This document shows positions 1 to 60,279 of a stretch of 64,000 bases of DNA, piece by piece (positions within the stretch are counted from its first letter, which is position 1; every line of letters starts with the position of its first letter). The translations under genes and the position numbers were made by a program. Where the stretch lies: NCBI GenBank assembly GCA_014905635.1, contig JABVCE010000032.1:62001-126000 (forward strand). The letters run 5' to 3'. The notes under the pieces are model-generated. The model was not told where the DNA came from, ran no database searches, and worked only from the letters and a program-made list of their open reading frames with translations. The DNA is from Scenedesmus sp. PABB004. Its lineage: Eukaryota.

Positions 1-469
1 CGTTGCCCTCGACGACCTCTTCCCCGCGCCTGCAAGAATATTCTTCCTGAAAATTGACACGGAAGGTTGGAGGCACGGCCGCACGCCGCGCCGGTGTTGG
101 CACTGTTCTGACGCCGCCGCTGGCTCCCTCCCGCGCGCAGGGTTTGAGCTTGACGTCTTTGCAGGCGCGGCACGGCTCTTTCAGCAGCGGCGTGTCGACA
201 ACGTGGTCTTTGAGTACACGGCGTTCTGGACCGACCGCGCTGACCAGCAGGCGCTTCTGCCCTTTGTAGAAGCTTTCCAGCCGAGAGCGCTGTACGCGCT
301 CGACCGCACGGGGCCAACGGTGTACGGCCCGCTGGGTCCCCAGGACGTGCGGGGTTTCTGGAAGGCGCACAACGACCGGCACCTGCAAACTGACGTGTAC
401 GCAACGTTCAGCGATGCGGACAGCCGGAAAGTGCGCGCGACGCCTTACACCCAGAGCGTAAACGCTTGA
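1..469 (+). CDS. FkbM-like SAM-dependent methyltransferase A, 3' part (5' end outside window)
   Basis: Exon to 65, GT-AG intron 66-140, exon 141-469 splice to LDDLFP..IFFLKIDTEGFELDVFAG..VVFEY, the FkbM-type KIDxEGxE motif. Confidence 0.8.
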   Translation, partial: VALDDLFPAPARIFFLKIDTEGWRHGRTPRRCWHCSDAAAGSLPRAGFELDVFAGAARLFQQRRVDNVVFEYTAFWTDRADQQALLPFVEAFQPRALYALDRTGPTVYGPLGPQDVRGFWKAHNDRHLQTDVYATFSDADSRKVRATPYTQSVNA

Positions 470-611
470 GCATCATCTTTCTGGTTCCCTGCAGCTCGAG
501 CCACCACCGCCAAGCAGTCGAGGCGCCGGGCGCGGTGGCTGCATCGCGGCGGCAGGCCTCGCCTCTCGCTGCACCAGGAGCGCCGCTGTGCTGGCCAGCA
601 GCCAGCAGCTA

Positions 612-1926
612 TCAGCAGGTGATGAACACGTCCTCCATGCCAAACTGCTCTTCCACAATAAACGCTCTCAACGCAGCGGGCGAGAGGGCAGGCGCGCTGT
701 CGGGATCGCCCACCGTTGTCATTTGCTTGACCCTCTTGATGGTGCACTGGAGCTCCAGCAGCGCCGCAAACGTCTCGTGCGCCGCCGCGCGTGATATGAT
801 GCCGTCGCGCTGCCACGTCACCGGCGCGACCTCGATCAGCAAGTGCCGCACGCGCTTGCTTCGGAGCATGCCCATGGCCGTCTTGAGGACGGACACCTCA
901 AAGCCCTCCGTGTCTGCGACGGGCCCAGGCGCGCCGTCATGAGCGGCTCACGCGGCAAGCAGGGCTTGCTTGCTGCCCGGCCTTCCCTGGCGCACCGATT
1001 TTGATCATGAAGATACTGATGCCGTCAAACACCGCATCCAGCGACACGGGGTGGGTGGTGACGTTGGTGCGCGGCCCCGGCACGGCCGTGGCGTCCAGTC
1101 CCGTCTTGACGCTGAACGAGCCACGACAGAGCGGAGGGACGGCCATGACCATCGGCGTCGGGTCGGCTGCAATGGCCTCGGGGATGATGCCAAACCGGCC
1201 CTCAACGATGGCTCGAATGTGCCCGTTGAGGCAGAGGTTGCGCTGGATTATGTTGATGCACAGCGGCTGGGGCTCGAAAAACACGACCTCGCAACCGTAG
1301 GACGCGGCGAGCACGCCTGGCGGGGAAGGGGGGGGGGGGGGAGATCGTGTGTGTGTATCTGGGGGGGGGCACCACGTGTTCACGAGGGTCGCTGTCGCTG
1401 ATTCTCACCGTAAAACCCCGCATTGGCGCCCGCGTCGACGAACAGCCCGCCGTGGCAGCCCTGCCCGAAAATTCGACTGAACACTGCGTGGACGTGTCGC
1501 TCGCTGTTGACTATCCAGTTCATGATGTCATCAGAGTCCTGTTGGCCGGGGTTCAGCGCAGCGACAGGCGGCGGCGCTGAGCAGCAGCAGCAGCAGGAGC
1601 AGCAGGAGCGGGGCGCCGCTGCCACTCGCGCAGCGCGGCGCGGCCCGCACCTGCGTCAGGTGGATGCGCTCGCCGCCCGGTTCCGAATACAGCAGCGTCT
1701 GGGCCAGCTTGCCCTGCTCAAACAGGCGGGAGCAGTCTGCGCGTGCTGCAAAGCGCTGCGAGAGGCCAGGCTGCGCTGTGACAGCAGACGCCGGCGCCGG
1801 GGCCGCCGCCGAAGCTGACGCCGCGGCACCATGTCCGGCCAGCAGGGCTTGTTCGATGCCGCGCTGGTGGACCGCGATGTGCACAAGCAAACACCCAAAC
1901 ACCGCCGCCAGCACGACCGTGGCAGC
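612..1926 (-). pseudogene. Inverted copy of methyltransferase B lacking its start codon region
   Basis: Near-identical to 5905-7218 including introns; the ATG and first 14 codons (5863-5904) are not copied and no nearby in-frame ATG replaces them. Confidence 0.6.
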
Positions 1927-2078
1927 GGTCGACGCCCAGCTGCTTCGCGGCGGGCGCGCGGTGACAGCGGGTCGCCCCGCGCGCTTGCGGGCCTGGCGCA
2001 GCGAGGTCAGGCCTGCCCCGCACCAGCAGGCTCTCCGTCGCACAGCTTTTACAGTTGAGCCACCCGCCGTGCATTCTC

Positions 2079-2935
2079 TCAGCACGTCGTCCAGCTCGCG
2101 TTGCGCCGGCACTGCTGCGGGCAGTCCCCCTGCGGCAGGTCTATGCCCTGGAACTCGTTGTCGGGCGCGTACACGTTGCCCACAAAGTCCGACGCGCAGC
2201 GCCGGCGCGTGGGGAAGCCGCGGGACTCGGCGGCCCCGTACGCGCCGCAAAAGTGCGACGCGTGCTGCAGCGTGTGGTCCTTGACGTGGGGCCACACCTG
2301 GCTCCCCAGCCAGGTCTGGTCGCTGCCGTGCGCGTACGAGGCGTTGCTCTGCCGGTCAGCGTCGCGCCACGCGCGGATCACGCGCGGGTTGATCAGCCCC
2401 CCCACCGCGCCCCACATGCCGCCCAGGATGGGGACGCTGTGGTAGGGGTGGTCGTTCATGGCGTGGAACAACCTGCCCGACGCGACCCACTCGTCGACCG
2501 CGGCCCGGTCGCGCGGCGTCAGGCGCGCGTCGGCGTCGCGCACGATCACGCGCGTCGCCGACGCGTCCTCGAGCGCGTAGAAGCGCCAGAACATGCCCGC
2601 GATGCCGCGCTGGTTGGACGTGACGCGCACCAGCTCCGCGCCGAGCACGCGCAGCGCGGCGAGCGTGGCCTCGGGCACGCCCTCGCCCGCGTACACACGC
2701 AGCGTCCAGTTGCCCCAGTCCCGGCGCACGAACAGCGCATTCTCCACCACGCCCGCCGTGTAGCGCGGGTTGTCGCCGTAGAGGGCCATGGAGATGAGCT
2801 TGCGCCCCCGCCCCTCGCGCTCCGCCGCCAGCACCGCGGCCGCGACGGCCGGAAAAACAGTCTCGCCCGTGTCCGGCAGCTCCGGCACGACCGCCGGGTG
2901 CTGCGTGCTGCTCGCATCACTGCCGAATGGCTGTG

Positions 2936-2967
<32 letters not shown>

Positions 2968-3218
2968 GTCTGCTGCGTGCCGCCAGCGGCAGCAGCAGCC
3001 GTCTCAGTGCTGTTCGCTCCGCCGCCGCCGAGGTGCAGTGGCGACGCGCCGTGCGCAGCAGCGCACGAGCGCTCCTGCAGTGGCGAGGGCAGGAAGTAGA
3101 GGCCGCATCCCACCGCGCTGAAGAAGAAGACGAGCGCCACGCACGCAAAGCACTGCAGCGCGCGGCGCCCCGCGCCGCTGCCGCCAGCGGCGCCCGCGTC
3201 CGGGGGCGCGCTCATCAT
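2079..3218 (-). CDS. Putative DxD glycosyltransferase, unassigned family, type II membrane, intronless (paralog 1)
   Basis: 379 aa; N-terminal TM, polyQ stem, motifs ISMALYG, GMFWRF, IVRDADARL, DHPYH, ILGGMWG, DQTWL; TGTAA on minus strand at 2049-2053. Confidence 0.7.
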
Positions 3219-3433: not shown

Positions 3434-4417
3434 ATGACCGCCTCAGCCGGCCACCGTGCGCGCCTGCTGCTCGCCCCTGCCGCCGCCGCCTGCCTGCTGT
3501 GCGCGGCCGTCACGCTCGCTCTGCTGGCCTGCGGTGGAAGTGGCGGCAGCGGCCAGCACGCCCACGCAGCCGCGGCGCCGCCTGCTCCACTCCACGCAGC
3601 AGACAGCGGCGCCACGCCCGGGCCACCGCCGGCGGCGCCAGCAGCCGCAGCGCTGCGCCATGCCTCCCTCGTCGTGGCGGTCACGAGCAAGGCGGGCAGC
3701 CACCGGCGGCGGGCCTGGGTCCGGGGCGAGCTGCGGCGCAGCCTCGCGCTGCTCGCGCGGCGCGACCCCGGCGCCGCGGCGGCGGCGGTGGTCGTGTTTG
3801 TCGTCGGCCTGCGCGGCCTGCCGCCCGGCGCGGCGGCCAACCTGAGCGCCGAGCACGCGGCGTCGGGCGACATGCTGCTGCTGCCCGACACGCCCGACGC
3901 CGACGCGCCCGACCCGCCGCCGCCGGGCGCCGACTCGGCGACGTGCCTCAAGGTCGTGCGCGCGGCGGCGTGGGCGGTGGCGCGCTACGAGTTTGCGCAC
4001 TTTGTGCGCCTCGGCGACGACTCGTTCTTCCGCATCGACTACTTCCTGGCCGACGTCGCGCCGGCGCTGCCGCGCGCGCGCCTGCTGCTCGGCTACTGCC
4101 CGCCGTCGCTGCGCTACACCTTCCCGTCGGGCGCCGCGGTGCGCTACTGCTCGGGCATGGGCTTTGTGCTCAGCGCCGACGCGGTCGCCTTCCTGGCGGC
4201 CGCCGCGGGTGAGGACATGCTTGCCATGCCCTGGCCCGAGGACGCGGCGGTGGCGCTCTGGCTGGCCGGCACGCGCGTGGAGACGACGCACGACGAGCGC
4301 TTCCACGACTGGGAGTGGCGGCGCTGCAGCAACCGCAGCATCATCGTGCACAAGCATCGCTACGGCGGCGTCGACGCCGCGGGCGTGATGACCGACTGCT
4401 TCCCCCAGACGCGCTAG
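3434..4417 (+). CDS. GT31 (Galactosyl_T) beta-1,3-galactosyltransferase-like, intronless
   Basis: 327 aa; N-terminal TM; RRAWVR, FVVG, AE..GD, FVRLGDDSF, YCSGMGFVLS, EDAAVALWL motifs; TGTAA at 4461. Confidence 0.85.
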   Translation: MTASAGHRARLLLAPAAAACLLCAAVTLALLACGGSGGSGQHAHAAAAPPAPLHAADSGATPGPPPAAPAAAALRHASLVVAVTSKAGSHRRRAWVRGELRRSLALLARRDPGAAAAAVVVFVVGLRGLPPGAAANLSAEHAASGDMLLLPDTPDADAPDPPPPGADSATCLKVVRAAAWAVARYEFAHFVRLGDDSFFRIDYFLADVAPALPRARLLLGYCPPSLRYTFPSGAAVRYCSGMGFVLSADAVAFLAAAAGEDMLAMPWPEDAAVALWLAGTRVETTHDERFHDWEWRRCSNRSIIVHKHRYGGVDAAGVMTDCFPQTR

Positions 4418-4460
4418 CACACAGCCTCGGCATGCTCGGCGGCGGCTGTGCCGCAGCTGT

Positions 4461-4465: not shown

Positions 4466-4568
4466 TGCAGGGGATCGGCCGCGCCGGGCGCTTGTTCAAC
4501 CGGCTTCTGCACACCCCTGCCGTCCTCCGCGCCCGCCGCCGCGCCGCGAGCCAGCTGCGTGCAGTCTC

Positions 4569-5663
4569 TCAGCACGCCGTCCAGCTCGCGTGTCGCCGGC
4601 ACTGGGCCGGGCATTCGCTCTGCGTGAGGTTCATGCCCAGAAACTCGTTTTCACGGACGTAAATGTTGCCCACAAAGTCCTGCATCGACTCGCGCTTGGT
4701 CGGGAAGCCGCGGAACTCACGAGCCCCGTACGCACCGCACTGGAAGGACGCGTGCTGCAGCGTAAAGTTCTTGACGTGCGGCCACAGGCTGCCCGCCAGC
4801 CAGGCCTGGTCGTTGCCCAGCGTGTACGTGGGGCTGTTCTTCGCATCGGCGTCCCGCCACTCGGCGATGATGCGGGGGCTGACGAGCCCGTTCACCGCGC
4901 CCCACATGCCGCCCATGACCGGCGTCGAGTGGTAGGGGTTGTCGTGCAGCGTATGGAAGAACGCGCCCGACGCGACCCACTCGTCCACCGCGGCCCGGTC
5001 GCGCCGGGTCAGCCGCGAGTCGGCGTCGCGGATGATGAAGCGCGATACCGTGCGGTCCTCGAGCACGTAGAAGCGCCAGAACATGCCCGCCGCGCCGCGC
5101 TGGTTGGAGGTGACGCGCACCAGCTCCGCGCCGAGCGCCTGCAGCGCGGTCAGCGTGCCCTCGGGCACGCCGTCGCCGACGTACACGCGCAGCGTCCAGT
5201 TGCCCCAGTCCCGGCGCACGAGCAGCGCGTTGTCGAGCGCGCCGTCCGTGAAGCGGGCCTGGGCGCCGTAGAGGGCCATGGAGATGACGGAGCGCCCCCG
5301 GCCCTCGCGCTCCGCCGCCAGCACCGCGGCCGCGACGCCGGGAAAGACCAACTCCCCGGTGGCCGGCAGCTCCGGCACGACCTGTGGGCGCGGCTGACTG
5401 CTGGCGGCGGCCAGGCTGGCGTTGGCTGCCCGCTGCGCCGCGGCTCGCGGCGCTTGCGGGCACGCCACGGCCAGCTGCCGCTGCTGCTGCTGCTGCTGCT
5501 GCTGGCGGTCCCATCCCCGCAGCAGGGCGGCGGAGGTGAGGGACAGCAGCATGCCAAACGCCACGCAGGCCTGGCACTTCAGGAGCGTGCGGCGCCCCGC
5601 CGCGCCGGTGCCGCCAGCGGCGTCTGGGTGCGCGCACGCGGCGCCCGGTGGTCGCGGCTTCAT
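4569..5663 (-). CDS. Putative DxD glycosyltransferase, unassigned family (paralog 2 of 2079-3218)
   Basis: 364 aa; same motifs (GMFWRF, IIRDADSRL, MGGMWG, DQAWL); alignable to paralog 1 along the whole catalytic region. Confidence 0.7.
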   Translation of the reverse strand: MKPRPPGAACAHPDAAGGTGAAGRRTLLKCQACVAFGMLLSLTSAALLRGWDRQQQQQQQQRQLAVACPQAPRAAAQRAANASLAAASSQPRPQVVPELPATGELVFPGVAAAVLAAEREGRGRSVISMALYGAQARFTDGALDNALLVRRDWGNWTLRVYVGDGVPEGTLTALQALGAELVRVTSNQRGAAGMFWRFYVLEDRTVSRFIIRDADSRLTRRDRAAVDEWVASGAFFHTLHDNPYHSTPVMGGMWGAVNGLVSPRIIAEWRDADAKNSPTYTLGNDQAWLAGSLWPHVKNFTLQHASFQCGAYGAREFRGFPTKRESMQDFVGNIYVRENEFLGMNLTQSECPAQCRRHASWTAC

Positions 5664-5862: not shown

Positions 5863-7218
5863 ATGAAGCCGCGGCCGCAGGGCGCGCCAGGGCGGGCGCC
5901 GACAGCTGCCACGGTCGTGCTGGCGGCGGTGTTTGGGTGTTTGCTTGTGCACATCGCGGTCCACCAGCGCGGCATCGAACAAGCCCTGCTGGCCGGACAT
6001 GGTGCCGCGGCGTCAGCTTCGGCGGCGGCCCCGGCGCCGGCGTCTGCTGTCACAGCGCAGCCTGGCCTCTCGCAGCGCTTTGCAGCACGCGCAGACTGCT
6101 CCCGCCTGTTTGAGCAGGGCAAGCTGGCCCAGACGCTGCTGTATTCGGAACCGGGCGGCGAGCGCATCCACCTGACGCAGGTGCGGGCCGCGCCGCGCTG
6201 CGCGAGTGGCAGCGGCGCCCCGCTCCTGCTGCTCCTGCTGCTGCTGCTGCTCAGCGCCGCCCCCTTTCGCTGCGCTGAACCCCGGCCAACAGGACTCTGA
6301 TGACATCATGAACTGGATAGTCAACAGCGAGCGACACGTCCACGCAGTGTTCAGTCGAGTTTTCGGGCAGGGCTGCCACGGCGGGCTGTTCGTCGACGCG
6401 GGCGCCAATGCGGGGTTTTACGGTGAGAATCAGCGACAGCGACCCTCGTGAACACGTGGTGCCCCCCCCCCCCAGATACACACACACGATCTCCCCCCCC
6501 CCTTCCCCGCCAGGCGTGCTCGCCGCGTCCTACGGTTGCGAGGTCGTGTTTTTCGAGCCCCAGCCGCTGTGCGTCAACATAATCCAGCGCAACCTCTGCC
6601 TCAACGGGCACATTCGAGCCATCGCTGAGGGCCGGTTTGGCATCATCCCCGAGGCCATTGCAGCCGACCCGACGCCGATGGTCATGGCCGTCCCTCCGCT
6701 CTGTCGTGGCTCGTTCAGCGTCAAGACGGGACTGGACGCCACGGCCGTGCCGGGGCCGCGCACCAACGTCACCACCCACCCCGTGTCGCTGGATGCGGTG
6801 TTTGACGGCATCAGTATCTTCATGATCAAAATCGGTGCGCCAGGGAAGGCCGGGCAGCAAGCAAGCCCTGCTTGCCGCGTGAGCCGCTCATGACGGCGCG
6901 CCTGGGCCCGTCGCAGACACGGAGGGCTTTGAGGTGTCCGTCCTCAAGACGGCCATGGGCATGCTCCGAAGCAAGCGCGTGCGGCACTTGCTGATCGAGG
7001 TCGCGCCGGTGACGTGGCAGCGCGACGGCATCATATCACGCGCGGCGGCGCACGAGACGTTTGCGGCGCTGCTGGAGCTCCAGTGCACCATCAAGAGGGT
7101 CAAGCAAATGACAACGGTGGGCGATCCCGACAGCGCGCCTGCCCTCTCGCCCGCTGCGTTGAGAGCGTTTATTGTGGAAGAGCAGTTTGGCATGGAGGAC
7201 GTGTTCATCACCTGCTGA
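5863..7218 (+). CDS. FkbM-like methyltransferase B, type II membrane
   Basis: Exons 5863-6180, 6293-6422, 6514-6834, 6917-7218 (all GT-AG) give FVDAGANAGFYG, FFEPQP, LD, IKIDTEGFE, IEV. Confidence 0.85.
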
Positions 7219-7832
7219 TAGCTGCTGGCTGCTGGCCAGCACAGCGGCGCTCCTGGTGCAGCGAGAGGCGAGGCCTGCCGCCGCGATGCAGCCACCGCGC
7301 CCGGCGCCTCGACTGCTTGGCGGTGGTGGCTCGAGCTGCAGGGAACCAGAAAGATGATGCTCAAGCGTTTACGCTCTGGGTGTGAGGCGTCGCGCGCACT
7401 TTCCGGCTGTCCGCATCACTGAACGTTGCGTACACGTCAGTTTGCAGGTGCCGGTCATTGTGCGCCTTCCAGAAACCCCGCACGTCCTGGGGACCCAGCG
7501 GGCCGTACACCGTTGGCCCCGTGCGGTCGAGCGCGTACAGCGCTCTCGGCTGGAACGCTTCCACAAAGGGCAGAAGCGCCTGCTGGTCAGCGCGGTCGGC
7601 CCAGAACGCCGTGTACTCAAAGACCACGTTGTCGACACGCCGCTGCTGAAAGAGCCGTGCCGTGCCTGCAAAGACGTCAAGCTCAAACCCTGCGCGCGGG
7701 AGGGAGCCAGCGGCGGCGTCAGAACAGCGTCAACACCGGCGCGGCGTGCGGGCGTGCCTCCAACCTTCTGTGTCAGTTTTCAGGAAGAAGAATATTCTGG
7801 CTGGCGCGGGGAAGAGGTCGTCGAGGGCAACG
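5905..7832. repeat. Inverted repeat IR1, right arm
   Basis: Reverse complement of 1-1926. Confidence 0.95.
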
Positions 7833-8258
7833 CTGTCGACAGTTATTGTGCCGCCGCCGCCGCCCGCCTTGGCCGTCTGTCCGGCGGCAGCCGAAAACGT
7901 CAAGCGCGCGTTTGACGCGTTGGTGACGACCTTGTTGACCAGGGTCACGCGCTCGCCGAAGCCGTTGACGTTGATCGACGCCTGGATGAGTGCCGCTTGG
8001 CGAGGCTGAACCTGCGGCACAGGGGGCAAGCGCCGCGGGGCGCTGAACCGCGGGCTTGGCGCCACGCGCGGCAGGCTGAAGCACTGCCTCGAGCTGCCGC
8101 ACCTCGAAGATGTACACGCGGCACCCCGCCGCCACCGCGGCCAGCCCGAAGTCGCCCAGGAACGCGCCCACGTCCACCACGACCGTGTCCGCGTCCTCGG
8201 CACAGCGCCGGGCGAGGTCAAGTTGCACCGCCTGCCGCGCCTTATCGCCCACGGATCT
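7361..8258 (-). CDS. FkbM-like methyltransferase A, second copy; 5' end unclear, possibly truncated or decaying
   Basis: Three exons: VVDVGAFLGDFG..YIFE / VQPRQ..LKTDTE / GFELDV..FEY; KID changed to KTD; in-frame stop just upstream of 8258; no TM exon found. Confidence 0.65.
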
Positions 8259-8633
8259 TTTGGCGCGGAAAGAGGAAAATCAGCTACATCCTAGCGTGAA
8301 GGCTGTAGCGTTCAACTAAAGCTGCAGCTACAGCCGGTCAGCATTTTGTGTTTAAAATTTTTTTACCACGGCGCTCCGCCCGAGCGCTGCAAGTTGTATG
8401 CCTGCGGCATCTTGAAAACGCCACCAAACGCAAGACGCGCTATTTCGGGTGCCGTCCGCCTGCCTGCAGTAGCGGCAGTAGCGGGTTGGCTGTAGCCGGC
8501 CGCAGCAGCCGCCACGCGTACAAAAGCCCCACGCCGACCCTCCCTGCCCAAGCGGGTTCCCCTCCTGCTCCGTGAAGCACCGGCGTGTCCCGGACACGCG
8601 CCAACACTTGGATTGCCAGCACCCTCAGGCACA

Positions 8634-18300: not shown

Positions 18301-18525
18301 TTCCGCCAAGCTTATTTTTTTTAAGCTCGGGGAGGGCGCCAAGCGCCGTTGGGTGCTGGTGACGGTGCACCGTCGTCGAGCAAGAGGTATTGCTGGGGGG
18401 CCCTGGTGTGAGCTGTGCCCCCCGAGGGCAAGCAGGTTGGGGACATCCATACTCGCAACATTGCTCGGGGCACACCGACCGACTCTGGGGCACCGAGGCG
18501 CACTCCAGCGGAAGGGCGTGCCCAG
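15321..18525. mobile_element. IR2: ~3.2 kb foldback-like unit with ~830 bp inverted arms (15321-16155, 17688-18525); mobility unproven
   Basis: Mirrored ORF coordinates sum to 33843; arms nearly identical; no transposase recognised. Confidence 0.45.
16644..17543 (+). CDS. Hypothetical protein (299 aa) inside IR2
   Basis: ATG-initiated ORF; N-terminal coiled-coil-like LLDKIESLERRLDRQQDALAQA, basic patches, Ala-rich remainder. Confidence 0.5.
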   Translation: MAASEVPVAALLDKIESLERRLDRQQDALAQACAAQSAPPPALESVDAFLQSYFGGSAELAGHAEERSGSGSAAAAGALEGPALRRQHSAPAGPLAQTPTSLRWSPAALSAPVLALSPLAEPLGSKRRSEPLVAAVADARSGTAGSPGEPLDRGGDSTRQRCKRSRSNTAAVVAGGGVAAPTFPPWLLQRARATLAPLSSTAAAALRAQQLQVLLGTDATGMPLPVAPTGAPALLPVGLAGTAPTGAPSSAATTAAAAAPQPRPHGQPVVQVEPLPRLGGVLPPGGFVRLLHDDAPLLV

Positions 18526-23294: not shown

Positions 23295-23353
<59 letters not shown>

Positions 23354-24036: not shown

Positions 24037-24071
<35 letters not shown>

Positions 24072-24747: not shown

Positions 24748-24781
<34 letters not shown>

Positions 24782-37491: not shown

Positions 37492-37557
37492 GTAACTCAG
37501 CAGTGCCCTCGCGCAGGCCACCGAGCAGGCGGCAGTGCTTGGCCAGGGCAGGCCGCA

Positions 37558-38090: not shown

Positions 38091-38253
38091 AGGCGTGCTC
38101 AGGCAGGGGCTTCCGCGTGGCCTCGCGCGTCCAGGCTCGTTGAAGGCCAATCGCACGATGCGGCGCTGCTACAGCCGAGCTGTCACGAACGGTCGTTCGA
38201 GCCCGCCGCCCACGCGCTGCCCGCTGCGCTAGACCAGCTCTCCATCCCCGACC

Positions 38254-39306: not shown

Positions 39307-39427
39307 CCCACAGCGACCGAGCCTGGCGGCAGCGGAGGTGCTTGAGAGCATCTGGGCCGGCGCACGCGAGCGCGGGCGCAGAGTCGCCGGTTACAGGGCG
39401 CCGCCCGAGCGCGCCGCTGGCTCGACC

Positions 39428-45287: not shown

Positions 45288-49992
<4,705 letters not shown>

Positions 49993-50209
49993 GGGCTAAC
50001 GCGTGCGAGCGGACATGCGCAGCTGTAAAAGGGTTGCCCTGCCCTGCCGCCGGCCTGGACACGCTGCGGGATGGTACCACCTACATCGGCCGCCCGCCAA
50101 CTTCCGGTGCAGCGGTCTGGGGGCGGGGCCGGTCTGGGGCCGCCCCCGGACCGGCCCCACCGCACAAGGCAGGCGCGCTGCGGCGTGGGGCAGATCACTC
50201 CGTGCTGAG

Positions 50210-53074
50210 TCACCTGCCTCGACCCTCACCCCCGACGGCGCAGCCGGGTGGCGGCACGCCATGCGGCAGCCCGGCGCAGTCTTGTGACGCCCACCACGCG
50301 ACCGAGTGCTGCCGCAGCGTGCGATTGCTCAGCTTGAGGGGATGCAGCCACAGCATGGGTTTCTCCTCTCGCAGATCCCCCTGCACAGCCACCCCCAGCT
50401 TGCACCCGTCCAGCTCGTCCGCAACTCGTTGGTCCATGCTCCGCCCCAGCGGGAGGAGCTCGCGCACGCAGCGCTCCGCAGCGCCCCGGCGGCCGTCCCA
50501 CAGCATTGCCCCCCGGACCACCTCGTAGTCGCTTGGCGCATCACCCAAGAGCCCCAGCATTGTCGGCAGCGCCGCCTCGCTCAGCACATGGTAGCTGCGC
50601 ATGTGCTGCGCGAGCGTGACAAACCGCCGCGCGAAGCGCGCCGGGACGTAGTAGTAGTCTGCTTGCGCTGCGCCGAAGAAGCGCCCGCCCTGCCCCTCGT
50701 CGCCCAGGCGGCGCTGTATCTGCGCCGCCACCCAGCCGTACGCGTTAGCAAGCGCCGCGTTTGTGTGGTTTTTGAGCGTCCCGGGTGCGCGGCCAAAGCT
50801 GAAGTCGGCCTGCCAGTGCCAGCCGTGGCTGGCGAGCACGTTGGTCACGTTGTGCGTGCCCCCGGGGTCGTGCGCCTCCATCCAGCGCACGGCCGCGGCG
50901 TGGCTTGTCACGGCATCGCTGTCGTACCAGACCTTGCTGCGGTTGAGGCCGAGGAGCAGGCAGGGGCTCAGCATGACGTCGTCGTTGATGTAGAGGAAGC
51001 CCCTCGCCCGTCGCCCCGCCCCGCTCTCAGCCTGCATGGCCTGAGCGAGGCAGATGTACGCAAATTGCCACCAAACGCGGCCCGTCAAGAAGGTGTTGAG
51101 ATGGTCACACTCCAGAAAGTTGGGAGGTGGCGGGCCTGGCGCAGGGGCAGTCCCTGGCCCACCCGTCGCGGGGCCAGCGAGCCAGTTGCCAACAAACACA
51201 ACGCGCCCGAACCAGGGCTTGTACGCGGCGTGCAGCAGGCGCATAAGATGCAGGCTGTCCCCCTCACCCTGGTTCAGCCTGAGTGAGTTGAAAAAGACCA
51301 CCAGCACAACATCATCCAGCCTGCACCACCGCCGCGGCAGCACAAAGCTGCTGCGCGGCCAGGCGCCACCGCTGCTGCTGCTGCGGGGCGGCGCCGCGGG
51401 CGCATTGGCTGAATGCGATGCGCCGTCCACGCCATTGCCGCCAGTGGCTGTGCGCCCGGTGTCCGCGGCGGCGTGTGATGCTGGCACAAGGCTCGGAAAC
51501 TTGTAGCCGACACGCCGCAGATCCTGCACCCACGCCGCCATGAGCTTGGCGTCCCTGTCACCCCAGTATCCCTTTGCGCTCAGCAGACGGCCCACCTCGA
51601 GCAGGCGGCCGGGCAGGTCGGGCGCGCGCGGCCGCCACGCGCGCAGGTCGGCGACGAGCGCGCCGGCCTTGCTGTACAGGTCGGCCTCTTCGAGGAAGTC
51701 CTTGAAGATGGTGTGGGGGTTGCGCTGCTTGACGACTGTCGGCGGGACGAATGCGAGGTGCCCGCCCACGTCCCACAGCAGCCGCTGAGCCCTGCGCAGG
51801 GCACAGGGAGCGGCGGCGTTGCACGGGGGCCACGCCGCGCACCTGCAGGCCGCGTGTGCGGCCACTTGCGTGCTGCCGTTGTCTGACCCCCCCCCCTCGC
51901 GGGGGTCCAGAGCGCGCACCAGTAGCCACGCCAGATGTCGCACACGCGCATCGACGTGCTGACTGGCAGCAGCAATGCCCACAGCGCGTCGTAGGCAAAC
52001 AGCGTGTTTTGGCTGTTGAACGGTGACATGCTTCCTGGCGGCAGCAGCACGCTGAAGGCCTGCTCATCAAACACCACGTTCAGGTCCCGCTGCAGGCGAA
52101 CAATCGCGTCGACGTCGGGGTCCTTGTTTGCGAGGCCCTGCTGGATGAGCGGCCGCCCCGGGCGGCGCGAAAAGCAGGTCGCGGGCGGCCGCTTGATGGC
52201 AGTGAGCGGGAGGCCGCGCGGCCACGCGTCCATGCCAAAGAGCGGGTACGGATTGAAGTCCACGTCACAGCCGGGATCGAGCATGGCAAACGGCGCACGG
52301 GGGCACGCGCCCGACACGTCCGGGCTCAGCTCGGGCGCACCGCCGCCGTCGGGCGGCGACACGAGCTGCAGGATGGTCGGCGTCAGCAGCACGTTGTTAT
52401 CGTCTGTCTCGTAGATTGCCGTCGCCCCGTTTGCAATCGCATACAGATAGCCAATGTTCTTGCGCCTGGGCACGCGGGGCGGGTCAGCGCGGGCAACGTC
52501 GCGCCGCGACGTTGCAAGCAGCAACTGCCGTCTTGAATTGAACACTTCCCCAGGACGCCGGCGCGCTCACCCATAGTTGTTCCAAGGAATGTGGCTCAGG
52601 ATCTTGTAGCCGAGCCACCGCTGCTGCTCAACGCTGAGAAACGTGACGTTTGGGTGCGTCCAATCGGCGGGCGTCTGTGAATTTTGGGAGCAGCGGCAGC
52701 GCGCATGATGGCTGAGTTCTCGTGATGGCAATGCACAGCACGCGCAGCGCCGCGCGCACCTTCTTGTCGGCCACAACCACCACCCGCCAGCCGTCCAGCG
52801 CCGCAAGCTTGCGCACCGCGTCCATGGGGTGTGAGATGGTGGTCATGACCACCCACCGCACGGCCGGTGCGCGCGAATCATGATGATCAGAGACGGCGGG
52901 GGGTCGACTTGGTGCGCCACCGCCCGCGCCAAATGCCCCGAAGCGACCCACACTGGCTACGCTGGCTACGTTGTAGGCCAGCCACGCCAGGGCCGCCAGG
53001 CCCAGCGACAGCACCAGGCGCTGCCTGAAATACCACCATGGGTGGTATTTCGCCACAGCTGGATTACTCGGCAT
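50210..53074 (-). CDS. STELLO-like (DUF288) putative glycosyltransferase
   Basis: TM; WVVMTTI, VVADKKTPADW, RKNIGYLYAI, IYETDDN, PFNSQNTLF, RVCDIWRGYWAQRLLW; C-terminal domain with GFLYINDD; 3 introns. Confidence 0.9.
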
Positions 53075-53217
53075 TGCTTGTCAACCTCTGAATATTGAAT
53101 TGATTCAGAAAAAGCACAACAACAATTCTTCTTTGAAATTCAATTCAATTGTTTTCTTCAAACGTGCCGCGTTGATTTAGAAAAAGCAAAAAAAAGCACA
53201 ACAAACAAGCGCCGAAT

Positions 53218-53325
53218 TCTGCTCGACCCTGCCGCCGCCGCCTGTGCCTGCTGTGCGCGGCCGTCACGCTCGCGCTGCTGGCCTGCGGCGGAAGTGGCAG
53301 CGGCCAGCACGCCCACGCAGCGGCA
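53218..53325 (+). pseudogene. Fragment of the GT31 gene 5' (TM) region
   Basis: Aligns to ~3466-3575. Confidence 0.8.
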
Positions 53326-53716
53326 CCGCCAGCTCGGCGCGGCCGGGGAAGCTGCTCATGCTCACCACAAGCCGGCGGGCGCGCCTCGGCGCCGGCGGCG
53401 ATGGCGGCGGCGACGGCGGCAGCGAGCGCAGTTCCACCAGCTTCCCGTGGCGCTCGCACGGCGCGTCGCTGCGCCCCGAGCCAACACTATGAACGGCTAG
53501 CTGCTTGTGCTTCGCGATCAACCCGAGCGCCGCGAGCGCAAAAGTTGTTGCACAAGCGAGCGCCCGGGTGTTTCTGCCGTGGCCGAACATCTTGTTGTCG
53601 CCACTGCCGCTGGATGGGCGCGCTGTCCGCTGCCGCTTCCACCACAGACCACCGGGAGCGTGACGGCCACGCGGCAGGCGTGGCGGCAGACCAGCAGTTG
53701 AAACCAACAGCGTCAT
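53321..53716 (-). pseudogene. 3'-truncated copy of the 59884 glycosyltransferase 5' end
   Basis: Identical peptide up to SFPGRAELAVP, then runs into the GT31 fragment. Confidence 0.85.
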
Positions 53717-53859
53717 AACCAGAGCTATTTCGCCAGGCGAAAACCCGACCGCCCGCTGCAGCTACTGTAGCTCTGGCCGCTTCGGGGCGCGCGTGCCAGC
53801 AGCCAACTTCGTACAGCGAGCAGCCGGGTGACCATGCAGCTCAGCATCAAGGCAGGGCA

Positions 53860-54460
53860 GTCGCAGGTGGTGGCCGCCCGGCGGCGGCCAACCTGAGCGC
53901 GGAGTACGCGGCGGCGACATTCGCACAGCGCACCGCCGCCGCCGGGCGCCGACTCTGCGGCGTGCTTGATGAAGGTCGTGCGCGCGGCGGCGTGGACGGT
54001 GGTGCGCTACGAGTTTGCGCACTTTGTGCGCCTCGGTGACGACTCGTTCTTCCATATCGACTACGTCTCGACTACTTCCTGGCCGACGTCGCGCCGGCGC
54101 TGCCGCGCGCGCGCCTGCTGCTCGGCTACTGCCCGCCGTCGCTGCGCTATACCTTCCCCTCGGGCGCCGCGGTACTGCTCGGGTATGGGCTCCATCGTGC
54201 CCAGCGCCGACGCGGTCGCCTTCCTGGCGGCGCCGCGGGCGAGGGCATGATGCTGACGGTGCCCTGGCACAGGACGCGGCGGTGGCGCACTGGCTGGCCG
54301 GCACGCGGAGACGACGCACGACGAGCGCTTCCAAGACTGGGAGTGGCGGCGCTGCAGCAACCGCAGCACCATCGTGCACGAGCACCGCGATGGCGGCGTC
54401 GACGCCGCGGGCGTGATGACTAACTGCTTCCGTCCAGACGCGCTAGCACAGCCTTGGCGT
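53860..54460 (+). pseudogene. Frameshifted GT31 copy (3' part)
   Basis: Aligns to ~3820-4440 with several indels; FAHFVRLGDDSFF and YCSGMG retained. Confidence 0.85.
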
Positions 54461-54591
54461 GCTCGGCAGCGCCACGGTGAGGGGGGTGCGGCCAAACAAA
54501 CATGGCGCCACAGACACAGGCGTGTGTCTGTGTCAACCGGCTTCCACACAGTCCCCCCCCCCTGCGCCACCACCCAGCTGCGTGCAGTGTC

Positions 54592-55176
54592 TCAGCGCGC
54601 TGCCCAGTTTGCAGGTCGCGCAGCACTTAACCTCACAGACATACGTGGTGGACGAGGCAAGTGGTGCTGTGCGCGCGGTGCACGCCCACGGCAGCGCAGC
54701 CGGCGCCCGCGCCTCCCAGCGCCCCAGGATGGATGCTCACCTCCCCGCCCGCCAAACGCGCCAGCGGAGCCGGAGCGCCTGAACTCGCCGCCGCCGCGGC
54801 CGCGGCCGCCCGCGCCGGCGGCGACCATGCTCATGCGCACGACCTTGGGAATCTTGGGCAGCACGCTCACGCTCACTGCACCCAGCACCAGCGGGCGCGT
54901 CTTGTAGTCCACCAGCACCTGCGACCAGCCCGCGTCAGGCCGCGTGGGTCTGGCCCCTGCCCGGGGCGCGCCCAACCGACCTGCAGCTGCGCATGGCGCA
55001 CCAAGCAGGCCGGCCCGCCGCACCTTTTGCGCGGACGCTTCTTGCGCAAAGTCGACGTACGCCGTGTTGGTTTCGTGCGTGCGGCTGAGCACGACCAGCA
55101 CGTTGGTGATGGGGCCGCAGCTCTCAAACAGCGCTGCCAGCTGCTCGCAGGTGGTGGTGCCGGGGATGCCGCGCAC
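54592..55176 (-). pseudogene. RRM plus Arg/Gly-rich tail fragment, apparently 5'-truncated
   Basis: VRGIP..LAALFESCGPI..AYVDFAQ; one GT-AG intron; GGRGRGGG tail; no clear start. Confidence 0.55.
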
Positions 55177-55311
55177 GTGCCCGACGCCTCCGCCATGCAG
55201 GCCTCTGCGCTGCCCCTGTCGCCGCCCTGCAGCAGCGGCAGTCAGGGGCGCGGCTGCGCCTGGCGCCGCCGCGGGCGCGCACCAGGTCGAGGAGGCAGCT
55301 GCCAGGGTGCC

Positions 55312-56942
55312 TCAACTGAGCGCAGAGCTGTTGAGGCGCGCCAGCAGCGACGCCACGGCGGGCGCGTGCGCCGCCATGCTGAGGTCGACGAGCTCATTGT
55401 ACTTGCGGTTCGTGGGGTCTTTGTAGTGCACAACACGCAGCTCGGTGCGCGGATCGGGGTTGTGCTGCGCCCCGCCGCCAGTGATGAGGTGAACGCTGTG
55501 GGCGACACCGGCAGCAAACACGTTGAGCACATTGCGAGGGCGGCATTGCTCGGCCAGACTTCGCACGCATCCCTCACCTCATGTAATTGACGGATTCCGG
55601 CCGCGCGAGCAGCTTGTCGCCGTCGATGCGGCTGGGGCCTGCGGTGAAGGTCGCCAGCTGCAGTCCACCGCCGGCTGCGTCCGCTGCGGCCTGCTGCGTG
55701 GCATTGGCGCTGGAGCCGAGGTACATGCCCTTCACCTGGCGGTTTCGAGGCGGGCAAGCGGGTTGGTGCGTGGCGGCAGCCAGGCGCGCGCGCGCGTGTT
55801 GGCAGCGCGCGCCTGGCGGCCCCGTACACGGCCGCCCGACCTGAAAGGCGCCGAGGTGCTCCATGTGGCTGCGCGCCGCCAGCCACTCGGCGACCGTCGT
55901 GTTTGTGCCGTCCGTGACCTGCAAGTACTCGTCCACGTCGGTCAGCGCGACCCAGCGGGCGCGCCCCCGATGGCGCACGAGGCAGCCGCACTGCTCCGCT
56001 TGCTGGAACGCCCAGCTGCCGGCGAGCTCAGGCGGCCAGTCAAAGTCAACGACCGTGACCAGGCCCGCCTGCACCAGCGGCCGCAGCGCCTCCTCCGCCG
56101 GCCCCGGCGGGTCGTCCACGTAGATGAAAAAGTGTTGCACGCCCTGCAGCGCGTGATATGCCACCCATTCGGGCACCAGGCGCACGGCAGACTGGCGCAC
56201 CATGGTGCAGGCGACGAGGTGCCGGAACGGCGGAGCGCCGGGAGGGTACAGGCAGTACGGCACGCGCTCGTACCGCCGCGTTGCTGTGTTGGCACCGCTG
56301 TCATTGCCGTGAAGCTCGACCCCGATGCTGACGTGCAGCGGCGCCGCTGGGTCGTGCCGTTCCTGGAGCTCCGCCGGCAGCTGGGCGTGGATGATGAACG
56401 TGTGCCCGTGCCCGTCCAGCCCCAGCGAGCGCGCGCGCGCGGTCGTCCCGACCTCGTCAAACGTGATGCTCCATACGCCGTCGCGCACCCACTGGTGCGC
56501 TGGGTTGGGGTGGATCTTGTTGTTCATCACTGCGTAGACCCGGTCCTGGTGCGCGGTGTGGTGGCCAGGGGAGGTTTGTGAGAGCAGCCGCCGCGGCCCG
56601 GGCTGCTCACGGCCGAGCGTGTGCAGGACGCACTTGCGCCACGATGACCTCGCTCAGCCCCGGCCACGCGTCGCGGGGGTCGCGCAGCCCTGCGTTGTAC
56701 TCCCAGAAGCGCCGCCGGCTCACGCGCAGGAAGCCGTCCGCGCACTCGCCGTCGCCGCCGGCACCGGCGGCCGAGCTGCGGGCGCTGATGCTGGCGGCGG
56801 GGGCTTGTGGTGGTGGTGCTGGGGGTGCTTGGGACGCCGGCAGCTCGCTTGACCGCGGGCAAGCCGTGCTGACGATGAGGGCGGCGTAGGCGACGACAGC
56901 AGCGGCCGCGATCGCTGCCAGCACAGCCCCGCTGCGCTTCAT
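55312..56942 (-). CDS. GT92 (DUF23) glycosyltransferase-like, type II membrane
   Basis: 4 exons; LVACTMVR, EWVAYHALQGVQHFFIY, WVALTDVDEYL, VHY motifs. Confidence 0.85.
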
Positions 56943-57112
56943 TTTCGGCCGCCAGGGCCATGCGGGCATCGAACACCGTTCGACAGCTGGAGCTGAACTG
57001 CCGTTGGCGGAAGGGTTGATGCTTGAATAAATGTTATTCTTGATGTTATTTTGGTTTCAAATGCGATTAAAGCGCACCGTCATGTTTTGAGGTGCATTGG
57101 TGCCTGGGGACG

Positions 57113-58405
57113 ATGGCGCGGCGCGCACGGTCAGCGGTCCTCTTGCTCGCGCTCGCTTTCCTGCACGTCGCGCAGCAACAGCAGCTCGCGGCGTATCCCT
57201 TTCATGTCTCGTGCTCGGGGCTCGCGGCCAGCAAGCAGACGTGCCTGTTCAACAACGTTTGCTTCGTGCCCGGCGCCAACGCCAGCCTCACCGTGCTGCT
57301 GCATGGCACCTCGACAGCACAGCACACTGAGCTGGCGCGGCGGCACTTTGAGGGACTGCTCGCGCCGCACTACGGCGGCGGGGTCTGGTTCAACGCCTCC
57401 AATGCACCCGCGCCGGTGCGCTCGGACCCGGATGGACCGACAGTCGACCACGCGGTGACGCTGTTTTGGCGTCCGGACCCCAACAATCAGTACTCGTTCG
57501 GGCACGCCCTCGTCAACGAGGTCTTCTCAATGTTCCTGGTGCTGTCCAACCACTTTGGCGACCACATCCCGCGCCGTCTGCAGGTCGTTTGCGCGAGCAG
57601 CTGGCACCCGGTCCTGCACCACCTTGTGTCAAGCATGATCGCGCACAGAGCGCAGCTGTGGACCGACAAGATGAAGGCGCACGAGCGGGGCGTGTGCTAC
57701 CGCCACGTGCTCGTCGGGGACGGCGGCTACGTCCACGCGTCGCGCGCGTCGCTCACAAACAGCGGTCACCCCCAGGCCGCGCAGTATGCCAGCGGGCCCA
57801 GCTTTTTCAGCAGCCGCAACTGGTGGGCCTTCCGGGCGTACGCCCTGGAGCTGGCGGGCGTCGTCGAGGACAACAGCGCCCACCACACGCGACCGCGTGA
57901 CCTTGTCCTGCTCAATGACAAGCGGCACGGCAGCGAGGCCGACCGGCGGATGATCATGGACATTGAGCAAGTGGCCGCCAACCTCAGCGCGGCGCTGCCG
58001 AGCGCCGAGGTGGCGGCCGTGCGCATTCGCGACCTGGCGTGGCCCGACCAGCTGCGCGTGCTCACGCGTACCAGCGTATTCATAACGACACAGGGCAGCA
58101 GCGCGTTCCGCCTCATCTTCTTGCCCAGGGGCGCCGTGTGCGTCATGGTTGGAGCGCCGGCTGAGCCGGGCTCAGAGTGGGAATCGTTCCACGAGCTGGA
58201 CAAGTGGTTTCCGCTCAGTTGGGTGGAGTTCGTCAAGTATGAAGTGCCTCTCAACGCGACCTGGGCATATGAGCCGTCACCCCTCTCCTGCACGTGGGTC
58301 AACAACACCAACACGAGGGACAGGGGCTGGTGCCTGTACAACGCTAACATCAGGCTGAACGCCAGCCGGTTGCACGGCATAGTTGCCCCGTTCGTGCGTG
58401 CATGA
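57113..58405 (+). CDS. GT61 (DUF563) glycosyltransferase-like, intronless
   Basis: Signal/TM; CLFNNVC, FGHALVN, DQLRVLTRTSVFITTQGSSAFRLIFLPRGA. Confidence 0.75.
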   Translation: MARRARSAVLLLALAFLHVAQQQQLAAYPFHVSCSGLAASKQTCLFNNVCFVPGANASLTVLLHGTSTAQHTELARRHFEGLLAPHYGGGVWFNASNAPAPVRSDPDGPTVDHAVTLFWRPDPNNQYSFGHALVNEVFSMFLVLSNHFGDHIPRRLQVVCASSWHPVLHHLVSSMIAHRAQLWTDKMKAHERGVCYRHVLVGDGGYVHASRASLTNSGHPQAAQYASGPSFFSSRNWWAFRAYALELAGVVEDNSAHHTRPRDLVLLNDKRHGSEADRRMIMDIEQVAANLSAALPSAEVAAVRIRDLAWPDQLRVLTRTSVFITTQGSSAFRLIFLPRGAVCVMVGAPAEPGSEWESFHELDKWFPLSWVEFVKYEVPLNATWAYEPSPLSCTWVNNTNTRDRGWCLYNANIRLNASRLHGIVAPFVRA

Positions 58406-58447
58406 CGGCAACTCGTTGCTAAGAGATGCGCGTGCTACTACCACTGC

Positions 58448-60279
58448 GCGAGCAGCTGGCAGCGCTGTGTTTGAGAGCTCCGGCCCCATCACCAACGTGC
58501 TGGTCGTGCCCAGCCGCACGCACGAAACCAACACGGCGTACATCGACTTTGCGCAAGAAGCGTCTGCGCAAAAGGTGCGGCGGGCCGGCCTGCTTGGTGC
58601 GCCGTGCGCAGCTGCAGGTCGGTTGGGCGCGCCCCGGGCAGGGGCCAGACCCACGCGGCCTGACGCGGGCTGGTCGCAGGTGCTGGTGGACTACAAGACG
58701 CGCCCGCTGGTGCTGGGTGCAGTGAGCGTGAGCGTGCTGCCCAAGATTCCCAAGGTCGTGCGCATGAGCATGGTCGCCGCCGGCGCGGGCGGCCGCGGCC
58801 GCGGCGGCGGCGAGTTCAGGCGCTCCGGCTCCGCTGGCGCGTTTGGCGGGCGGGGAGGTGAGCATCCATCCTGGGGCGCTGGGAGGCGCGGGCGCCGGCT
58901 GCGCTGCCGTGGGCGTGCACCGCGCGCACAGCACCACTTGCCTCGTCCACCACGTATGTCTGTGAGGTTAAGTGCTGGGCGACCTGCAAACTGGGCAGCG
59001 CGCTGAGACACTGCACGCAGCTGGGTGGTGGCGCAGGGGGGGGGGGGACTGTGTGGAAACCGGTTGACACAGACACACGCCTGTGTCTGTGGCGCCATGT
59101 TTGTTTGGCCGCACCCCCCTCACCGTGGCGCTGCCGAGCACGCCAAGGCTGTGCTAGCGCGTCTGGACGGAAGCAGTTAGTCATCACGCCCGCGGCGTCG
59201 ACGCCGCCATCGCGGTGCTCGTGCACGATGGTGCTGCGGTTGCTGCAGCGCCGCCACTCCCAGTCTTGGAAGCGCTCGTCGTGCGTCGTCTCCGCGTGCC
59301 GGCCAGCCAGTGCGCCACCGCCGCGTCCTGTGCCAGGGCACCGTCAGCATCATGCCCTCGCCCGCGGCGCCGCCAGGAAGGCGACCGCGTCGGCGCTGGG
59401 CACGATGGAGCCCATACCCGAGCAGTACCGCGGCGCCCGAGGGGAAGGTATAGCGCAGCGACGGCGGGCAGTAGCCGAGCAGCAGGCGCGCGCGCGGCAG
59501 CGCCGGCGCGACGTCGGCCAGGAAGTAGTCGAGACGTAGTCGATATGGAAGAACGAGTCGTCACCGAGGCGCACAAAGTGCGCAAACTCGTAGCGCACCA
59601 CCGTCCACGCCGCCGCGCGCACGACCTTCATCAAGCACGCCGCAGAGTCGGCGCCCGGCGGCGGCGGTGCGCTGTGCGAATGTCGCCGCCGCGTACTCCG
59701 CGCTCAGGTTGGCCGCCGCCGGGCGGCCACCACCTGCGACTGCCCTGCCTTGATGCTGAGCTGCATGGTCACCCGGCTGCTCGCTGTACGAAGTTGGCTG
59801 CTGGCACGCGCGCCCCGAAGCGGCCAGAGCTACAGTAGCTGCAGCGGGCGGTCGGGTTTTCGCCTGGCGAAATAGCTCTGGTTATGACGCTGTTGGTTTC
59901 AACTGCTGGTCTGCCGCCACGCCTGCCGCGTGGCCGTCACGCTCCCGGTGGTCTGTGGTGGAAGCGGCAGCGGACAGCGCGCCCATCCAGCGGCAGTGGC
60001 GACAACAAGATGTTCGGCCACGGCAGAAACACCCGGGCGCTCGCTTGTGCAACAACTTTTGCACTCGCGGCGCTCGGGTTGATCGCGAAGCACAAGCAGC
60101 TAGCCGTTCATAGCGTTGGCTCGGGGCGCAGCGACGCGCCGTGCGAGCGCCACGGGAAGCTGGTGGAACTGCGCTCGCTGCCGCCGTCGCCGCCGCCATC
60201 GCCGCCGGCGCCGAGGCGCGCCCGCCGGCTCGTGGTGAGCATGAGCAGCTTTCCCGGCCGCGCCGAGCTGGCGGTGCCG
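58448..60279. repeat. Inverted repeat IR3, right arm (second copies of the RRM fragment ~58448-59006 and GT31 pseudogene ~59140-59740)
   Basis: Reverse complement of 53321-55150. Confidence 0.95.

Follow-up and report, generated by a model that had tools for sequence, protein, structure and literature searches.

Near-identical inverted arms around a unique spacer are well known from the palindromes of primate sex chromosomes, in which gene conversion runs from arm to arm and the spacer inverts. Inverted duplications have also been described at chromosomal inversions of the Drosophila melanogaster group, where unique gene sequence of up to ~1.9 kb was found duplicated in inverse orientation at 17 of 29 inversions; the accessible part of that report further describes duplications that often derive from one breakpoint only and breakpoints that are reused, and sets out a staggered-break model for their origin (Ranz et al. 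2007, PMC1885836). Here we describe a locus of the green alga Scenedesmus sp. PABB004, contained in a window of 64,000 nucleotides (contig JABVCE010000032.1, positions 62,001 to 126,000 of the forward strand), in which three long inverted repeats (IR-A, IR-B and IR-C) lie among partial, direct copies of genes from the same neighbourhood, including the sterol 22-desaturase gene CYP710, a NEPRO-like gene, the glutamyl-tRNA synthetase gene GluRS and GT31 glycosyltransferase genes. It is probable, in our judgement, that small rearrangements of local extent have reshaped the region on several occasions and left copies of breakpoint sequence in place, and one of the inverted repeats, IR-C, retains enough of its junctions for this to be read. 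The genome is given, in the accessible part of its description, as an assembly of 39.8 Mb in 77 contigs with ~1.3% repeats (PMC12571836).

Copies were located by self-BLAST of the window and their limits refined by gapped local alignment, protein profiles (Pfam) were run on the 494 stop-to-stop open reading frames (ORFs) of at least 80 aa, and exons were mapped by tblastn with proteins returned from searches. Chance is excluded by the self-BLAST E-values of the copies (1e-35 to 0), whose identities range from 82% to 99.6% and which lie 2.4 to 50 kb from their donors, on both strands. The copies are real in the assembly, were made at the DNA level and are of differing age. Copying of DNA rather than RNA follows from the introns that were kept, namely three in the CYP710 copy, ~125 nt of one in the GluRS copy and 13 nt past the donor site in the NEPRO-like copy; a retroposed copy would have lost its introns and have a poly(A) tail, and intron sequence is present in both the CYP710 and the GluRS copies. 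An earlier reading, made from the sequence alone, had listed partial copies and three long inverted repeats, and self-BLAST recovers every one of them, together with the direct repeat of the intact paralogues X1 and X2, which that list lacked. Its statements that intron sequence had been retained through DNA-level copying and that divergence runs from near-identical to frameshifted agree with these observations, frameshifts being present in the GluRS, GT31 and right-hand RRM copies. One listed item, a copy of the 5' end of the glycosyltransferase gene at 59884 (gene G), is indeed present as sequence; it is merely 59884-60279 mirrored at 53716-53321 inside IR-C. The further statement that all donors lie within about 55 kb holds in so far as the same-genome relatives of the GT31 and CYP710 copies were found only on this contig: in a collection of 5.8 billion proteins only one relative of more than 206 aa exists for the GT31-2 fragment, namely GT31-1 of the window, and the two CYP710 entries labelled with PABB004 both come from the window's contig. 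It is in part an ascertainment effect, since only donors inside the window were recognisable to the earlier reader.

Table 1. Inverted repeats, direct copies and genes of the window (positions in nucleotides from its first letter; IR, inverted repeat; ~ between positions joins the two members of a pair)
Feature	Position	Strand	Description
IR-A	1-1937 / 7832-5894		98.9% over 1933 aligned bases; loop 3956 nt; left arm cut by window edge, so arm length is a minimum
IR-A left arm	1-1937		FkbM-type methyltransferase exons 615-1752 (minus); 3' end of a second such gene 2-466 (plus)
IR-A loop	1938-5893		X1, GT31-1, X2
IR-A right arm	5894-7832		mirrored FkbM genes, 6079-7215 plus
IR-B	15321-16155 / 18525-17688		99.6% over 829 bases; loop 1532 nt
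IR-B left arm	15321-16155		non-coding by composition
IR-B loop	16156-17687		orphan ORF 16479-17540, plus
IR-B right arm	17688-18525
IR-C	53321-55148 / 60279-58448		99.4% over 1828 bases; loop 3299 nt
IR-C left arm	53321-55148		copy of gene G 5' end 53716-53321 (minus, dead end at junction); GT31-2 pseudogene body 53873-54471 (plus); RRM 3' part 54595-55148 (minus)
IR-C loop	55149-58447		RRM 5' part (to 55311, minus), GT92, GT61
IR-C right arm	58448-60279		truncated, frameshifted RRM copy 58448-59003 (plus); GT31-2 body copy 59727-59129 (minus); gene G 5' part 59884-60279 (plus)
Direct copy, CYP710	13389-15255 ~ 26848-28802	minus (copy)	last four exons, three introns and ~520 nt of 3' flank
Direct copy, NEPRO-like	31578-31940 (donor) ~ 33980-34350 (copy)	plus, plus	5' leader and first coding exon
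Direct copy, GluRS	49486-49996 (donor) ~ 37561-38094 (copy)	plus, plus	last exon and ~125 nt of intron
Direct copy, GT31-1 5' end	3467-3570 ~ 53219-53321		92%
GT31 body copies	3820-4444 ~ 53873-54471 and 59727-59129		84%
Direct repeat, X1/X2	2057-2892 ~ 4548-5382		intact paralogues
X1	2082-3218	minus
GT31-1	3434-4417	plus	Galactosyl_T weak, 18.5 bits vs cut-off 23
X2	4572-5663	minus
Unnamed multi-exon gene	~8.7-12.9 kb	minus	composition only
Secreted Cys-rich gene	starts near 19180 (~19.2 kb)		signal peptide, Ephrin_rec_like repeats (Pfam)
Tandem array	22670-26510		357-bp unit x 10.6 copies, 93% matches; downstream of the secreted Cys-rich gene
CYP710, full length (sterol 22-desaturase)	feature 26848-31245, gene ~27.4-31.2 kb	minus	p450 match
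NEPRO-like gene	~31.6-33.9 kb	plus	NEPRO_N weak, 23.5 bits vs cut-off 24.9
GT47	34470-36170	minus
ORF-Y	38233-39303	plus
SPOC-domain gene	from 39.4 kb	minus
GluRS	~46.4-50.0 kb	plus	tRNA-synt_1c with C and C2 domains
STELLO-type transferase	50213-52063	minus
RRM gene	54595-55311	minus
GT92	55577-56653	minus
GT61	57071-58402	plus
Gene G, transferase-like	59884 to 60561	plus	crosses the right-arm edge of IR-C

In all three inverted repeats two inverted copies bracket a unique segment, as expected from a staggered break; the further expectation of one ancestral and one novel junction per copy, on opposite sides, is borne out for IR-C only. Its arms have one ancestral and one novel junction apiece, the ancestral one being the inner junction of the left arm and the outer junction of the right arm. 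At the inner-left junction (55148/55149) the RRM gene is continuous, with the Pfam RRM_1 match running unbroken from the loop into the arm (profile positions 3-56, E 5e-8); the right-arm copy matches profile positions 18-56 only (E 0.005), carries a 2-nt insertion and, as read from its translation, is without the first strand motif, RNP2. At the outer-right junction (60279/60280) it is gene G that is continuous, with the boundary falling exactly between codons 132 and 133. This junction is crossed in one stretch, with at least 10 residues on each side, by the alignments of 99 of the 116 gene G relatives in a representative library (hand count from the table of matches), and the left-arm copy of the first 132 codons continues into unrelated sequence.

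Copying and insertion of a segment predicts one arm with two ancestral junctions and another with two novel ones, which is not the pattern of IR-C. A simple copy-and-paste origin of the right arm was also considered and is ruled out, because gene G extends past the arm. The junctions suggest that IR-C was left by an inversion and does not border an inserted cassette, and they fit either the staggered-break inversion model or an inverted copy followed by a flip. In the first case an inversion of ~5.1 kb, comprising the loop and one arm, would have changed the order flank-M-S-Y into flank-rc(S)-rc(M)-S-Y (rc, reverse complement); one of the two breaks would have had a stagger of 1.83 kb, and repair would have filled in its overhangs before joining the ends without microhomology. 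In the second, an inverted copy or insertion would have been followed by a recombinational flip of the loop between the arms, leading to the same end state. Gene conversion between the arms since then would keep them alike. IR-A and IR-B may share this origin, and the direct copies (the CYP710 3' module, NEPRO-like exon 1, the GluRS last exon and the GT31 pieces) would be breakpoint duplications or filler DNA of further events, some of them later re-oriented, and incidental products of repair rather than a means of cassette insertion.

Both novel junctions of IR-C (53320/53321 and 58447/58448) have 0 nt of microhomology. The flank to the left of IR-C ends in GCAG and the right end of the loop is CTGC, a pattern that would fit a 4-nt stagger at the second breakpoint, although this is weak support as it is expected in about 1 in 256 cases by chance. 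The junctions bear on an alternative that had also been put forward in the sequence-only reading, namely replication-based template switching of the kind known as fork stalling and template switching (FoSTeS) or microhomology-mediated break-induced replication (MMBIR), in which stalled forks would have copied a few hundred to 2000 bases from nearby templates, in direct or inverted orientation, and then returned. In favour of such a process are the distances and strands of the donors, small patches (~100-530 bp) with two novel junctions each, patches that lie side by side at block borders, such as the GT31 5' piece abutting an IR-C arm, and a GT31-2 whose only relative found is the local GT31-1. 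However, the microhomology that it predicts is absent from the two junctions young enough to score, the older junctions, of copies 82-94% identical, being too diverged for this, and the locality of the donors is in part the ascertainment effect described above. A templated insertion would moreover give one copy with two novel junctions, against one novel junction per arm in IR-C, a difference that a later flip could hide. We therefore regard template switching as unlikely, though not negligible.

The GT31-1 5'-end copy (53219-53320, plus) stops exactly at the outer-left edge of IR-C. An older look-alike of the GT31 5' end, 75-80% identical, is found in both arms (59911-59995 and 53605-53689), upstream of the likely start of gene G. 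It faces away from the body of GT31-2, a hint that this gene was split by an earlier inversion.

The differences between the arms are clustered. In IR-C there are 13, at 53348-53537 and 54541-55128, with none in the 1003 bases between (53538-54540), and in IR-A 24, with none in the stretch 447-1204. Under uniform divergence such gaps would be very unlikely, with rough probabilities of (825/1828)^13 and (1179/1937)^24, values that are uncorrected for the post hoc choice of the gaps. As the centres of the arms are identical and the ends differ, the clustering indicates gene conversion from arm to arm, which would explain the pattern in both repeats. It also argues against the possibility that the inverted repeats, or some of the copies, are artefacts of assembly and do not exist in the organism. 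This possibility is raised by an assembly of long-read scale in 77 contigs (PMC12571836), by several arm differences that are homopolymer-length indels and may be sequencing errors, and by comparison contigs that belong to a relative and come from a single study, one of them departing from the window at 58453. On the other side, each of the three repeats is internal, encloses a unique loop (1.5-4 kb) and is flanked by unique sequence, whereas fold-back read artefacts are spacer-free palindromes. Each arm of IR-C completes a different real gene, and the direct copies, at 82-94% identity, are far too diverged to have arisen in this way. Taken with the contigs of the relative described below, this makes an artefact very unlikely.

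The relative was found in two metagenome runs of one study that share 14-22% of the sampled words of the window; their contigs are ~90-95% identical to it, and thus belong to a relative and not to PABB004. Contigs from both (run X1, record 2; run X2, record 10) bridge the inner-left junction 55148/55149, the one at which the RRM gene is continuous. At the outer-right edge of IR-C the contigs are interrupted between 60283, where one ends, and 60312, where the next begins, as expected if the arm is repeated in the relative too. The contigs cover the window in part, with a gap at 53.5-54.5 kb for example.

Capture of gene fragments by a non-autonomous mobile element, be it of the long terminal inverted repeat (TIR) or foldback, the Pack type or the Helitron type, offers another account of the copies. 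Pack-type elements and Helitrons carry intron-bearing gene fragments, and IR-B consists of non-coding arms of 835 nt around an orphan ORF, for which an Atlas look-up gave no usable match or relatives and whose Atlas model has low confidence. However, transposase, reverse transcriptase, integrase and Rep/helicase families were found in 0 of the 494 ORFs, in line with the earlier statement that no transposase or reverse transcriptase is visible. For 9 candidate block borders the longest matches, TIR-like or direct, fall in the range given by random window pairs, the three inverted repeats aside, and no short direct repeat matching a target-site duplication (TSD) flanks IR-B or IR-C. Helitron-like 3' ends (a hairpin followed by CTRRT) occur at 4 sites, fewer than the mean of 6.45 in 20 shuffles, with none at a junction, so that the search for Helitron or Pack-type termini that had been proposed as a check returned nothing beyond chance at the borders. 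The arms of IR-A and IR-C are parts of host genes, cut inside exons and without a mobile-element domain, and the genome as a whole is reported to contain 1.3% repeats (PMC12571836). An origin by mobile elements is accordingly most improbable.

The direct copies differ in how far they have decayed. The GluRS copy runs from the final ~125 nt of the last intron to 4 nt past the stop codon, lies just upstream of ORF-Y and has frameshifts of -1 and +7; the copy of the GT31-2 body has several frameshifts and 2 stops. These two and the right-hand RRM copy are dead as judged from their reading frames. The NEPRO-like copy starts ~210 nt upstream of the ATG taken as the start codon, ends 13 nt past the GT donor and abuts the 3' end of GT47; it keeps both ATG and donor, and its 3 coding indels are all multiples of three, unlike the indels upstream. 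An open first exon that faces the GT47 3' end is one possible reading of positions 34186-34340. The GluRS and NEPRO-like patches flank GT47 on either side and have two novel junctions each. The idea that such pieces are exon-precise was rejected on account of the ~125 nt of intron in the GluRS copy and the ~210 nt that precede the ATG in the NEPRO-like copy.

In the CYP710 copy (exons 15198-15037, 14806-14624, 14401-14249 and 13995-13906) the frames and all splice sites are intact. Exons A-C differ from the full gene by 7 mismatches in 498 aligned bases (98.6% identity), introns are 79-86% and the 3' flank 93% identical, and the 195 codons compared differ by 11 synonymous and 3 non-synonymous changes. 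The full-length gene in turn has a 1-nt deletion near 28168, in its third-from-last coding exon (28263-28082, minus), relative both to the copy exon 14624-14806 and to the mapped orthologues P0069 of Tetradesmus obliquus and P0074 of Monoraphidium neglectum; this may be a real frameshift or an assembly indel. The CYP710 copy, by these features, may not be dead. The earlier description of the copies as scraps is too strong for the CYP710 copy, with its intact exons and splice sites, and for the NEPRO-like copy, with its ATG, donor and in-frame indels. The two CYP710 3' segments, of 1.87 kb, are direct repeats that bracket an 11.6-kb block containing IR-B, the secreted gene and the tandem array, and the right-hand segment continues into the remainder of CYP710, an arrangement that fits a staggered-break insertion or two overlapping inversions. 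A metagenome contig of another green alga (L032) has two sets of CYP710 exons arranged tail to tail, one at 6647-8483 (plus) and the other at 12666-11385 (minus); CYP710 has therefore been duplicated in another alga too.

The state of the CYP710 and NEPRO-like copies could be taken to mean that the structures serve a selected function, the inverted repeats as flip-flop switches, or the copies as working modules, such as a spare or alternative CYP710 3' end and first or last exons for chimeric genes. The 11 synonymous against 3 non-synonymous changes in CYP710, the 1-nt deletion that the full gene has in one of the copied exons, the retained NEPRO-like features and the homogenised arms, which imply that the loops can probably flip, would all agree with this. 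However, a flip of the IR-C loop rebuilds the same RRM gene and alters no other junction, so that there is nothing to switch, and the GluRS, GT31-2 and right-hand RRM copies are frameshifted. The frameshifted GluRS pair, used as a dead control, shows 8 synonymous and 7 non-synonymous differences (hand count from the alignment), so that the contrast with CYP710 is suggestive but marginal (rough binomial ~0.05), and all 3 non-synonymous CYP710 changes are on the side of the copy relative to the Tetradesmus obliquus protein P0069. A selected function is on this evidence scarcely credible. A mixed case, in which a true recombination hotspot remodels a glycosyltransferase and methyltransferase island through repeated micro-inversions and patch copies and selection keeps some of the products, the CYP710 3' module as working or spare exons and the NEPRO-like copy as a ready-made gene start, is also doubtful, and we give it little weight.

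Several observations weigh against repeated local rearrangement as the explanation. A single inversion cannot make direct copies, so that extra events must be assumed. The CYP710 exons are far better kept than the introns and flank, which a pure scar leaves unexplained. At the edge of IR-C the GT31 5' piece is 92% identical to its donor whereas the arms are 99.4% identical to each other, and it is hard for one event to explain both. Polarity is readable for IR-C only, because IR-A is cut by the window edge and the arms of IR-B are non-coding. In the relative, the contig that departs from the window (run X1, record 4) runs from the loop as far as 58453, beyond which its next 52 letters are unlike the right arm, and another contig matches the right arm only from 58832; either the inner-right structure of IR-C differs in part in the relative or the assembly is wrong there. 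Finally, at 42 metagenome loci with CYP710 the window ORFs of at least 50 aa match only CYP710, with no shared neighbour gene, and a metagenome scan with GT61 found no relative; these scans give no outgroup arrangement, so that the inversion is read from junction anatomy alone.

Even so, the introns that were kept, the differing ages of the copies, the lack of any mark of a mobile element and the relatives on the same contig together make a local rearrangement hotspot, operating without mobile elements, a reasonable reading. The sequence-only reading had proposed a hotspot at which genes are inserted or shuffled by locally templated repair; its local rearrangement hotspot is a fair description, but no insertion of a cassette was seen, and the one structure that can be read, IR-C, appears to be the scar of a micro-inversion.

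The window has ~70% G+C and contains genes with introns. Intron-rich housekeeping genes (CYP710, the NEPRO-like gene, the SPOC gene and GluRS) alternate with glycosyltransferase and methyltransferase genes that are poor in introns; the latter are single long ORFs with a G+C content at third codon positions (GC3) of 0.73-0.93, and the CYP710 exons have a GC3 of 0.97. The transferase-bearing blocks 33980-39430 and 50000-60279 have 68% G+C against 74-80% in the adjoining housekeeping genes. The secreted Cys-rich gene and the 357-bp tandem array probably form one large secreted repeat protein. ORF-Y falls into unnamed eukaryote clusters in Atlas, with a weak lead (0.79-0.80) to FkbM-type methyltransferases. 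The X family (X1 and X2) has no Pfam match; its algal relatives are 50-58% identical, and metagenomes hold many proteins of ~217 aa at 35-38% identity, some relatives being fused to Fringe or TPR domains. Scans of viral contigs with X2 and GT92 gave a single distant match each (33% and 29% identity), without sign of a recent viral origin, and ARAGORN found no tRNA-like genes in the window. An intron of GluRS contains a long (GT)n run (47949-48407) within the region 47896-48600, where a flank of ~290 bp is duplicated (47896-48127 ~ 48186-48417, 93.5%).

The repeats also have consequences for annotation. The public 577-aa model P0001 (615-3218, minus) runs from the first 306 residues of X1 into the FkbM exons of the IR-A arm, and is probably a fused gene model, since X1 alone aligns over its full length to its paralogue X2 (P0002) and to P0003. 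The public 518-aa CYP710 model P0129 skips 19 residues at the 1-nt deletion, and a further public model labels the four-exon CYP710 fragment as CYP710A1. A probable gene fusion across an arm edge, a 19-residue skip that hides an apparent frameshift and a fragment bearing the name CYP710A1 have in this way entered the public models.

Our analysis provides a worked example from a green alga in which the direction of a tiny inversion may be read from junction anatomy alone, and suggests that where a repeat-poor genome contains nearly identical gene fragments in inverted orientation, these may be something other than mobile elements, switches or misassemblies. Should scars of this kind prove denser here than in the genome on average, the interval would be a fragile or fast-evolving glycosylation gene cluster, with a bearing on the diversification of algal cell-surface sugars. 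If selection does keep some of the products, scars left by rearrangement would supply an otherwise almost repeat-free genome with material from which new surface-glycan genes could form.

Compared with described systems, the locus resembles Pack-type elements and Helitrons in that gene fragments have been copied with their introns, but it has no termini, TSD, border hairpin with CTRR or element protein, and each fragment is seen once in the window. The patches of 100-500 bp from nearby sequence at block junctions are like the products of MMBIR/FoSTeS and the filler DNA of plant non-homologous end joining (NHEJ), whereas microhomology, the usual sign of such products, is missing from both of the junctions that are young enough to be scored. 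With the palindromes of primate sex chromosomes the inverted repeats share near-identical, gene-bearing arms, a unique spacer and an identity that peaks at a distance from the ends of the arms; the arms of the algal locus are shorter by a factor of 100 to 1000, and there is no sign of amplification of a dosage-sensitive gene family. Most features are shared with the Drosophila inversions, as the accessible part of their description presents them (PMC1885836). There, as here, inverted copies of mostly partial coding sequence, which also at this locus would be ancestrally unique, bracket the inverted segment, with duplications of up to ~1.9 kb there and of 0.8-1.9 kb here; duplication at a single breakpoint, decay by substitutions and small indels, and reuse of breakpoints appear to be common to both, repeats or transposable elements do not appear to be involved, and the duplication gives polarity, as read for IR-C. 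The differences are that the segments here are of 1.5-4 kb whereas those of Drosophila were mapped on polytene chromosomes, that arm identity is 99% here, as if homogenised, and ~88% there, that direct copies are mixed in, and that the ancestral order is here read from junctions alone. A micro-inversion scar of the IR-C type would thus be a known kind of structure; what is striking is the density, with about eight events in 60 kb of a repeat-poor genome.

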